Source: a virus
Strand: one strand, 5' to 3'
Virus record (IMG/VR): IMGVR_UViG_3300045988_166899
DNA: 40,002 bases
Shown: positions 20,080-20,809 of the stretch, in pieces
Numbering within the stretch: position 1 is the first letter of the stretch
Layout: each line of letters opens with the position of its first letter
Notes under the pieces: generated by a model
Told to the model about the DNA's origin: nothing
What the model saw: the letters and a program-made list of their open reading frames with translations, nothing else
The model's database searches: none
Position numbers and translations under genes: made by a program

Positions 20080-20328
20080 ATGATGAAACGGATTTTGTGC
20101 GTGATGCTTTTATCCGTCATGACAATTCTTGGCTTTATGGATAAGCCGTGTGCGAGCAAAATGATTTCAACAATGAATCATAATAACTGGCAATCATTTA
20201 TACTAAGCGTGGGAAATATCACTTCTGCGAGAATGAGCACTTACAACAGTAAACTAAATGCAACATTAGTCGTTGATTTTTTTAAAGAAATGTGCAGCAC
20301 TGGCTACCCGCAAATAATTTTTCACTAA
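20080..20328 (+). CDS. putative secreted/lipoprotein-like small protein (AT-rich moron)
   Basis: MMKRILCVMLLSVMTILGFMDKPCAS signal-like N-term; GAGGGAGGGG SD. Confidence 0.45.
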   Translation: MMKRILCVMLLSVMTILGFMDKPCASKMISTMNHNNWQSFILSVGNITSARMSTYNSKLNATLVVDFFKEMCSTGYPQIIFH

Positions 20329-20479
20329 TCGGATTTACATCTGCATACAACAGAGCAAAAAATATTTGTATTAATTCATCATCTAGCTATGATGAAGATT
20401 CAGCATACTTTAATAATGCTCCTCGTAAAGAAGCTGTTCCGGATGCCGTATACTTTTAACACAAAAATAAGGAGATAAT

Positions 20480-20809
20480 ATGGACGCTATGATGCAATTC
20501 GTACCATTGATTATTTTTTCACTTTTATATGGCATACCATTATACATGGTAACCAAAAGAAAAGGGTATTCTGGAATTGTATCAATGTTGTGTTTCATTC
20601 CTATTGTTAACTTTTTTACAATACCCTTCTTCATTGGAGCTCCAGATCTTATATTGCGTGATATGATAAAATCTTTAGGAGAACAAAAACATATCAAAAA
20701 ATGTCCTTTTTGTGCGGAAGAAATTCAACAAGAGGCCATTATATGCAAACATTGTGGTAGAGATTTGCCTGAGAAACATACTGTGATGCAATTAACAGAC
20801 AAATCTTGA
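20480..20809 (+). CDS. 2-TM membrane protein with C-terminal zinc ribbon (AT-rich moron)
   Basis: two hydrophobic helices then [31 protein letters not shown]. Confidence 0.6.

Follow-up and report, generated by a model that had tools for sequence, protein, structure and literature searches.

What is a pair of AT-rich genes doing on the strand opposite to the late genes of a gut phage, and are both of them still functional? The question is raised by IMG/VR record IMGVR_UViG_3300045988_166899, a temperate Bilophila wadsworthia phage whose whole 40,002-nucleotide stretch was analysed (hereafter the window). Two plus-strand open reading frames, ORF1 (20080-20328; 82 amino acids (aa)) and ORF2 (20480-20809; 109 aa), make up an island at 20080-20809, which an earlier note, made from the sequence alone, had described as a moron encoding a functional pair of membrane-directed proteins. 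The pair did not hold up: ORF1 represents only the 5' end of a gene for 203 aa that a 232-bp deletion between 9-bp repeats has disrupted, and ORF2 is intact. The best explanation for the whole, to which a probability of about 40% is attached, is that ORF2 may be a prophage inner-membrane superinfection-exclusion protein within a slot for exchangeable cargo, a reading built by analogy with known exclusion systems.

The island was acquired horizontally and is accessory cargo in a slot prone to swapping: it combines the lowest guanine-plus-cytosine (GC) content of the window with near-identical relatives that carry different AT-rich genes at the same site. GC content is 0.338 across 20080-20809 against a window mean of 0.537 (standard deviation 0.045, 730-bp windows), which is ~4.4 standard deviations under the mean and a value as low as that of 0.06% of 730-bp windows. 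Along the late operon come the ejection-region genes (products of 322, 417, 973 and 136 aa), followed by rha, ORF2 and ORF1 on the opposite strand and, beyond ORF1 in the late-operon direction, an HTH_17 gene, the tail fibre and the chaperone. The slot is flanked on both sides by minus-strand genes, and rha (21093-21830, plus strand), which encodes an antirepressor-type regulator of the Phage_pRha family (Pfam PF09669, 1.6e-28; PHROG 518, 3.7e-40), is co-oriented with the cargo. The left backbone neighbour of the slot is the excisionase-like HTH_17 gene at the head of the tail-fibre cassette (19753-19995, minus strand; Pfam HTH_17, PHROG 66), which encodes 80 aa, is called in all public contigs and has GGAGG before its ATG at 19995. 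Much of the first description is therefore sound: the flanking minus-strand genes confirm a location in an otherwise leftward region between the tail-fibre module and rha, the GC content is indeed far below that of the backbone, and both plus-strand ORFs have strong ribosome-binding sites where they were reported, GAGGGAGGGG at 20068-20077 before ORF1 and AAGGAGA at 20469-20475 before ORF2.

The relatives, drawn from IMG/VR and metagenomes and numbered here as loci (L), define the edges of the slot. By blastn the backbone is 91-97% identical up to 20082 (L010) or 20097-20099 (L016-L019), and homology restarts at 20805/20806 (L018-L023, L027) or at 21093. The DNA from the HTH_17 start codon through the first six codons of ORF1 (MMKRIL) is virtually identical in the window, L010, L016, L018 and L045 despite their differing cargo. 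This 'expression platform' (19996-20097, plus strand) consists of the intergenic region, a palindrome, the ribosome-binding site, the ATG and those six codons and, as it is the same whatever follows, the expression signals are part of the backbone, and what changes is the cassette that follows them.

Between the breakpoints the relatives carry unrelated AT-rich genes, most of whose products have a signal peptide, a lipobox or membrane helices. L016 and L017 encode a 235-aa lipoprotein and a 215-aa secreted coiled-coil protein, L018 and L019 two paralogous small lipoproteins, L022, L023 and L038 a signal-peptide HNH-like protein with other ORFs, and L010 a 123-aa multi-transmembrane protein followed by ORF2. 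An intact 203-aa protein precedes ORF2 in L045, L046, L048 and L049; L044 and L047 have the same intact allele with the ORF2 DNA present and no gene called there. For most of this alternative cargo Pfam, PHROGs, PADLOC and NCBIfam returned nothing usable. The HNH-like proteins (~95-100 aa; L022 4725-5021, L023 3101-3403, L038 52-339) have an N-terminal signal peptide followed by the HNH motif (Pfam HNH, 4.8e-5), and a secreted HNH protein is unusual in a prophage slot for envelope cargo.

The variable cargo and the deviant GC content agree with the view in the earlier note of AT-rich, moron-like foreign DNA. Under the Juhala/Hendrix definition, summarised in PMC3594210, morons are additional DNA lodged between conserved genes and equipped with a promoter and terminator of their own; the island resembles classical lambdoid morons in being extra DNA amid conserved genes, in its GC content and in its variable presence, since the interval is otherwise filled in L010, L016-19, L022-23 and L044-49. 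It differs from them in that everything from the upstream region to the sixth codon, ribosome-binding site and ATG included, is backbone and in that no separate promoter or terminator was detected: a consensus scan expected to give 3.0 promoter-like and 1.4 terminator-like sites gave 3 and 2, a chance level obtained with a consensus that may differ from Bilophila promoters, and no scanned site flanks the plus-strand cargo genes at the expected position. The behaviour of the locus is closer to that of a fixed expression slot for interchangeable cassettes than to that of a classical moron.

The history of ORF1 is recorded in six sister prophages (L044-L049), whose DNA is identical to that of the window save for a single gap. 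In the sisters the 9-bp direct repeat TAATTTTTC occurs twice, at a spacing of 232 bp; only one copy is left in the window, at the deletion junction (20315-20323, plus strand), and the intervening DNA has been lost. As 232 is not a multiple of three the reading frame shifts and ORF1 stops two codons on, so that its residues 1-81 are those of the full-length protein and are followed by a histidine and the stop. The 3' remnant of the 203-aa gene persists out of frame at 20324-20459 (plus strand), in the frame of a 55-aa ORF at 20292-20459, and its DNA is identical to the intact alleles down to the same PDAVYF-stop end. Both pieces align with the 210-aa secreted protein of another prophage lineage, ORF1 residues 1-80 with its residues 1-76 (E 2e-14) and the 55-aa ORF with its residues 155-210 (E 5e-11), and the 90%-identity cluster of ORF1 includes proteins of 202-222 aa. 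What can still be made from the broken gene is a signal peptide and ~55 mature residues, no more. The broken allele is nevertheless the commoner in public assemblies, where at least 108 contigs encode the exact 82-aa product and the most frequent intact forms listed reach 37, 21 and 8.

Of the lipoprotein-like signal reported for ORF1, only the signal-like start stands. A basic MMKR precedes a hydrophobic stretch (Kyte-Doolittle 1.85, residues 1-19), as in a signal peptide, but the lipobox ([LVI][ASTVI][GAS]C) is absent, with ILGF where ILGC is needed, and a lipoprotein assignment was rejected; relatives with other cargo behind the MMKRIL start do carry lipoboxes (MAGC, LFGC). A word-indexed homologue search with ORF1 found near-identical fragments only, and Pfam, PHROGs, PADLOC and NCBIfam gave nothing usable for it. 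The intact 203-aa protein has no relative in Pfam, PHROG, NCBIfam or the PDB and its single-sequence AlphaFold2 model is unreliable (predicted local distance difference test, pLDDT, 51); an IMG/VR scan with the 210-aa protein gave no match. Two further ideas were discarded. The T5 run at the junction, where programmed minus-one frameshifting would join ORF1 and the remnant again, offers no proper slippery heptamer, and there is no supporting evidence; that the 203/210-aa protein must be paired with ORF2 is ruled out by L038 and L041, in which the 210-aa protein is paired with a 93-aa lipoprotein.

The earlier note had also considered that the region might be a degenerate remnant, which applies to ORF1 and not to ORF2. 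A longer N-terminus for ORF2 is ruled out by an in-frame TAA at 20468-20470. The protein has hydrophobic segments at ~7-25 and 32-54 followed by CPFC-x10-CKHC, with the ribbon cysteines at C75, C78, C89 and C92 and weak Pfam zinc-ribbon matches (PF13248, 7e-5). In an AlphaFold2 model from a 50-sequence alignment (mean pLDDT 78), two helices of membrane length, of which the second is kinked, lead into an amphipathic helix (57-69) and a small ribbon. Hydrophobicity and model together uphold the two transmembrane helices and CPFC...CKHC motif noticed in the first reading, and ORF2 is predicted to be a membrane hairpin joined to a Cys4 zinc ribbon. PDB sequence searches, and Foldseek searches of the PDB and BFVD with the model, gave no match at E <= 0.001; ribbon proteins such as ribosomal L37a and RanBP2-type fingers predominate among the top matches.

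All 17 related loci have ORF2 either unchanged or with 1-4 nt different, and the gene has been retained while the one upstream was swapped (L010) or deleted (the window). Compared with its 56%-identical homologue, the proportions of non-synonymous and synonymous differences are 0.31 (pN) and 0.72 (pS), a pN/pS of ~0.43 at saturated synonymous divergence, and the gene appears to be under purifying selection. The exact protein recurs on ~39.9-kb contigs of many human-gut metagenomes, as found by exact-protein look-ups. In L010 (2708-3193) an in-frame upstream ORF adds 52 residues to ORF2, including two further hydrophobic segments; this extended form is annotated as 161 aa, also in B. wadsworthia itself (WP_303327270.1), with the ribosome-binding site and ATG for the 109-aa product still present inside it.

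An exhaustive HMMER search with ORF2 returned 5253 matches at E <= 1e-3, mostly to the ribbon alone. Full-length relatives are P0017 (56% identity over residues 4-96, E 4e-29), P0018, P0019, P0022 and P0023, whereas P0050 and P0130 align over the protein and are ribbon-less. The close family has K28, G29, Y30, P41, G53, P55, D56 and L66 without exception, and ORF2 retains them all; a wider group shares a KGRS-type loop and a CP[FY]CAE-x-I-x3-A-x2-C[KR][HY]CG ribbon. Homology therefore spans both the hairpin (KKGY/KGRS loop) and the ribbon and places ORF2 in a hairpin-plus-ribbon family, which has no characterised member. A scan of GTDB genomes with ORF2 gave ribbon-only matches in unrelated metagenome-assembled genomes, and a scan of IMG/VR gave no match.

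Members of this family recur at prophage accessory sites. In a second Bilophila-type gut prophage lineage the 56%-identical copy is the last of an array of 160-, 123-, 120-, 210- and 101-aa genes, beside tail-fibre genes and directly upstream of a Bro-N antirepressor-type gene. The HK97-like Salmonella phage FSL SP-016 has a homologue (35% identity, E 3e-14) between the tail chaperone gp14 and the tape measure, and Microcystis phage Mae-JY04 has one in a two-gene opposite-strand island in its tail module. On the 37-kb phage contig L053 the family member belongs to a repressor-side operon that is headed by a CI-type HTH_3 gene and runs opposite to all other genes, and on phage contig L055 it follows the tape-measure gene. 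Homologues are also found on chromosomes of Desulfovibrionaceae; those in Nitratidesulfovibrio vulgaris and a relative are divergent from FtrD-like/FtsX/ABC genes. The synteny of these chromosomal genes (L029-L032, 8001-8417; L056, 2160-2522) is conserved, and in N. vulgaris the FtrD-like gene is followed by FtsX/MacB and ABC-ATPase genes, which hints at the cellular role of the family.

The closest parallel to the location of ORF2 is sieA of phage P22. In P22, genes 7, 20 and 16 are followed by sieA in opposite orientation, then by the mnt/arc/ant antirepressor module and the tailspike gene 9. All sieA homologues examined in detail keep the P22 position between gene 16 and gene 9, and SieA acts against the ejection proteins gp16 and gp20 (PMC10883804). 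Like sieA, ORF2 is a prophage membrane-protein gene that is found in only some related phages, lies on the strand opposite the late operon between the last ejection gene and the tailspike or fibre gene, and adjoins an antirepressor module, although its assignment to a SieA-like site between ejection-region genes and tail fibre is one of positional analogy. In location the slot corresponds to P22 sieA/immI (PMC10883804). The proteins themselves differ: SieA has 162-164 aa, three predicted transmembrane helices and no zinc ribbon, ORF2 has 109 aa, two helices and a Cys4 ribbon, and comparison of ORF2 with SieA types A-C, including the FxRYPxEAxxFNK motif, gave a BLASTP E of 2.0 and an hhalign probability of 0.2%.

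A second parallel is gp15 of HK97, a YebO-like inner-membrane exclusion moron that acts against the HK97 tail (PMC3594210). It too is a small moron-type membrane protein with bacterial homologues outside prophages, and the FSL SP-016 member of the ORF2 family occupies the gp15 site itself; unlike ORF2, gp15 has 62 aa and no ribbon, and the HK97 record has a putative terminator just after gene 15, whereas none was detected for ORF2. ORF2 and gp15 gave a BLASTP E of 1.4 and an hhalign probability of 0.1%. The two-helix membrane hairpin and short basic loop of ORF2 are also reminiscent of T4 Imm and of PF14373 (Imm_superinfect), and two distant ribbon proteins, P0004 and P0011, join a PF14373 hairpin to the same CPFCAE...CKHCGRD ribbon. 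The ORF2 hairpin differs from Imm in its KKGY and G-x-PD motifs and has no hmmscan match to PF14373 at E <= 1. Membership of ORF2 in the SieA, gp15/YebO or Imm families was accordingly rejected, there being no detectable sequence similarity. PHROG 8436 does share its architecture: ORF2 scores 2e-13 over the ribbon region and P0017 matches positions 3-88 of the 110-position profile. As PHROG 8436 has no known function, it names the family of ORF2 and explains nothing.

Superinfection exclusion is favoured because the anatomy of ORF2 and the contexts of its family fit it best. In the model proposed, the backbone supplies the upstream region, ribosome-binding site, start codon and six codons, and the cargo behind them is exchanged between phages. 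ORF2 would be made in the lysogen and insert in the inner membrane as a helical hairpin bearing a small zinc-ribbon domain, where it might block genome entry by incoming related phages, the ejection-protein channel being its putative target. Exclusion would then proceed as by P22 SieA, HK97 gp15 and T4 Imm, yet through an unrelated family.

Several points weigh against this model. ORF2 is without detectable similarity to any characterised exclusion protein, and the arguments from position are analogies. The breadth of the ribbon motif in bacteria, with its 5253 matches, and the conserved chromosomal homologues beside an FtrD-like/ABC transporter locus suggest a general cellular role that is perhaps unrelated to phages. 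Topology predictions conflict: the charge pattern of the family, an acidic N-tail with 2.4 basic residues (K+R) in the loop on average, predicts an N-out/C-out protein with the ribbon in the periplasm, while the same ribbon at the extreme N-terminus of signal-less proteins implies a cytoplasmic location. Furthermore, the consensus scan, at chance level throughout, found no terminator between ORF2 and rha that would point to independent expression in the lysogen.

The strongest competitor, unlikely though worth serious attention, is that ORF2 is a borrowed housekeeping protein that alters the envelope physiology of the lysogen, for example transport, stress or bile tolerance, to the benefit of the host. 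In its favour stands the conserved synteny of the homologues in N. vulgaris and its relative, divergent from FtrD-like, FtsX/MacB and ABC genes; the strong retention of the ribbon motif across thousands of bacterial proteins suggests a cellular partner, and the other slot cargo is likewise envelope-directed with no assigned function. Set against this, the family recurs at classical exclusion or defence sites, namely the gp15 position, a repressor operon and the sieA-like slot. A cellular origin is in itself no argument against exclusion, since YebO, the cellular homologue of gp15, had no effect on phage propagation whereas the phage copy excluded (PMC3594210).

It is distinctly unlikely that ORF2 is a membrane effector of abortive infection, in which the ribbon would sense infection and the hairpin disrupt the membrane, so that the lysogen is killed or arrested. 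A small membrane protein at a prophage accessory site would suit this role, the ribbon could act as a sensor domain, and the L053 family member is encoded in a repressor-side operon. Lambda rexAB lies at such a repressor-side position. Nevertheless, no PADLOC model rose above noise for ORF2, no conserved partner gene stands beside it, and the chromosomal homologues are apparently stably kept.

The neighbourhood of ORF2 could also be read as an antirepressor module in which ORF2, membrane-tethered and co-transcribed with rha or bro, regulates or senses for the lysis-lysogeny switch. It is directly upstream of and co-oriented with Rha in the window and Bro-N in the second lineage, no terminator-like site separates it from rha, and a conserved, structured non-coding region follows it. 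This too is improbable: relatives with the same rha and leader carry wholly different cargo or no member of the ORF2 family, and the members in FSL SP-016, Mae-JY04, L053 and L055 have no adjacent antirepressor. No better are the prospects for the whole island as decaying, non-functional DNA. ORF1 is demonstrably broken and its broken allele is the commoner one, but ORF2 is intact in every copy seen, has kept its ribosome-binding site and the residues invariant in its family, and has accumulated far fewer non-synonymous than synonymous differences. That ORF2 is a holin or lysis accessory protein is hardly credible, because although its size, two transmembrane helices and charged C-terminal tail resemble class II holins, it is AT-rich, opposite to the late genes, missing in many relatives and provided with chromosomal homologues, and the phage has a separate lysis cassette (38844-39996) with a Peptidase_M15_3 endolysin on the other strand.

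A broader conjecture can be entertained with considerable reserve: the hairpin-plus-ribbon proteins (ORF2, PHROG 8436 and hundreds more) might form a large, unrecognised, cross-phylum family of prophage superinfection-exclusion proteins recruited from a bacterial housekeeping membrane protein. The Bilophila locus would be a fixed 'plug-in' slot whose backbone contributes the signals up to the start of the signal peptide, with envelope-directed cassettes shuffled after that point.

The non-coding DNA on either side of the cargo has features of its own. On the left, the 14-bp palindrome TCTCCGTATGGAGA (20056-20069) is directly 5' of the ORF1 ribosome-binding site, in backbone kept by all cargo variants, and may act as an operator or, folded into a hairpin, conceal the ribosome-binding site. 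On the right, the region between the slot and rha (20806-21092, plus strand) is kept in relatives whatever their cargo and opens with a TTGACA that overlaps the ORF2 stop and forms the right backbone boundary. Its computed fold has a stability above that of shuffled sequence (z = -3.98), and RNAalifold on six relatives predicted 77 pairs, five with compensatory changes; an Rfam search of 19900-21200 gave no match. The region is a candidate regulatory or structured RNA, whether leader, small RNA or operator for the antirepressor-type rha gene, in a role that we take to resemble that of P22 sar/Oarc.

As to the phage that carries the slot, an exact 55-nt direct repeat at 1-55 and 39948-40002 indicates that the window is a circular assembly with a genome length of 39,947 bp. 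Its integrase is an exact match to B. wadsworthia RefSeq WP_462407343.1, which is itself on Mb-scale contigs, and sister copies of the phage were found integrated beside bacterial genes. PHROG matches include the terminase, portal, scaffold, major capsid and 'DNA ejection protein' (PHROG 4287, in the ejection region) as well as a RecT/exonuclease module, CII, Dam, replication genes and a late activator. The phage is probably short-tailed, because the window ORFs scanned yielded no tape-measure, tube or sheath protein and the closest portals (~30% identity) are those of podophages of Proteobacteria. Megablast of the island region gave no match in 50,697 phage records or in all complete E. coli genomes, and literature searches found no paper on B. 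wadsworthia phages.

Other parts of the window merit mention. The lysis cassette, on the minus strand upstream of the terminase, comprises the Peptidase_M15_3 endolysin (39610-39996), a 74-aa membrane protein as holin candidate (39386-39610) and two spanin candidates, a 93-aa protein with a lipobox-like LCAC (39095-39376) and a 95-aa membrane protein (38844-39131). Two tail-fibre cassettes stand in tandem at 16526-19995 (minus strand): one has an HTH_17 gene (18027-18260) with genes for 195, 142, 110 and 62 aa, and the other the HTH_17 gene at 19753-19995 with a 293-aa fibre and a Phage_tail_APC chaperone. The two HTH_17 genes are ~70% identical across ~155-165 nt, and relatives have either cassette or other fibres, so the receptor-binding module is likewise swapped as a unit. 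The 973-aa ejection-region protein (22634-25555, minus strand) has no Pfam or PHROG match and no tblastn match in the 50,697 phage records, and its length varies across near-identical relatives (668, 885, 939 and 973 aa). The second-lowest GC island of the window (5857-6795, plus strand; 0.35) codes for a DUF3800 protein (Pfam, 1.8e-18), is preceded at a short distance by an HTH_3 regulator gene (4990-5724) and is probably the 'first moron' implied by the earlier note, which had counted the present island as the second.

In kind the locus is ordinary, an accessory envelope-cargo slot at a SieA-like position with one dead and one intact gene, and the broken first gene is a caution against taking every moron ORF as functional cargo. 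B. wadsworthia is a bile-associated, sulfide-producing gut pathobiont, and its prophages carry highly exchangeable envelope proteins where P22 keeps an exclusion gene; the slot proteins could shape the phage susceptibility and surface properties of gut strains. If ORF2 does exclude phages, a new and very widespread family would join the few exclusion mechanisms that are understood, and the FSL SP-016 homologue in Salmonella offers an easy experimental system for it. The locus is thus a lead to a possibly widespread exclusion family and provides a first look at the phages of B. wadsworthia.

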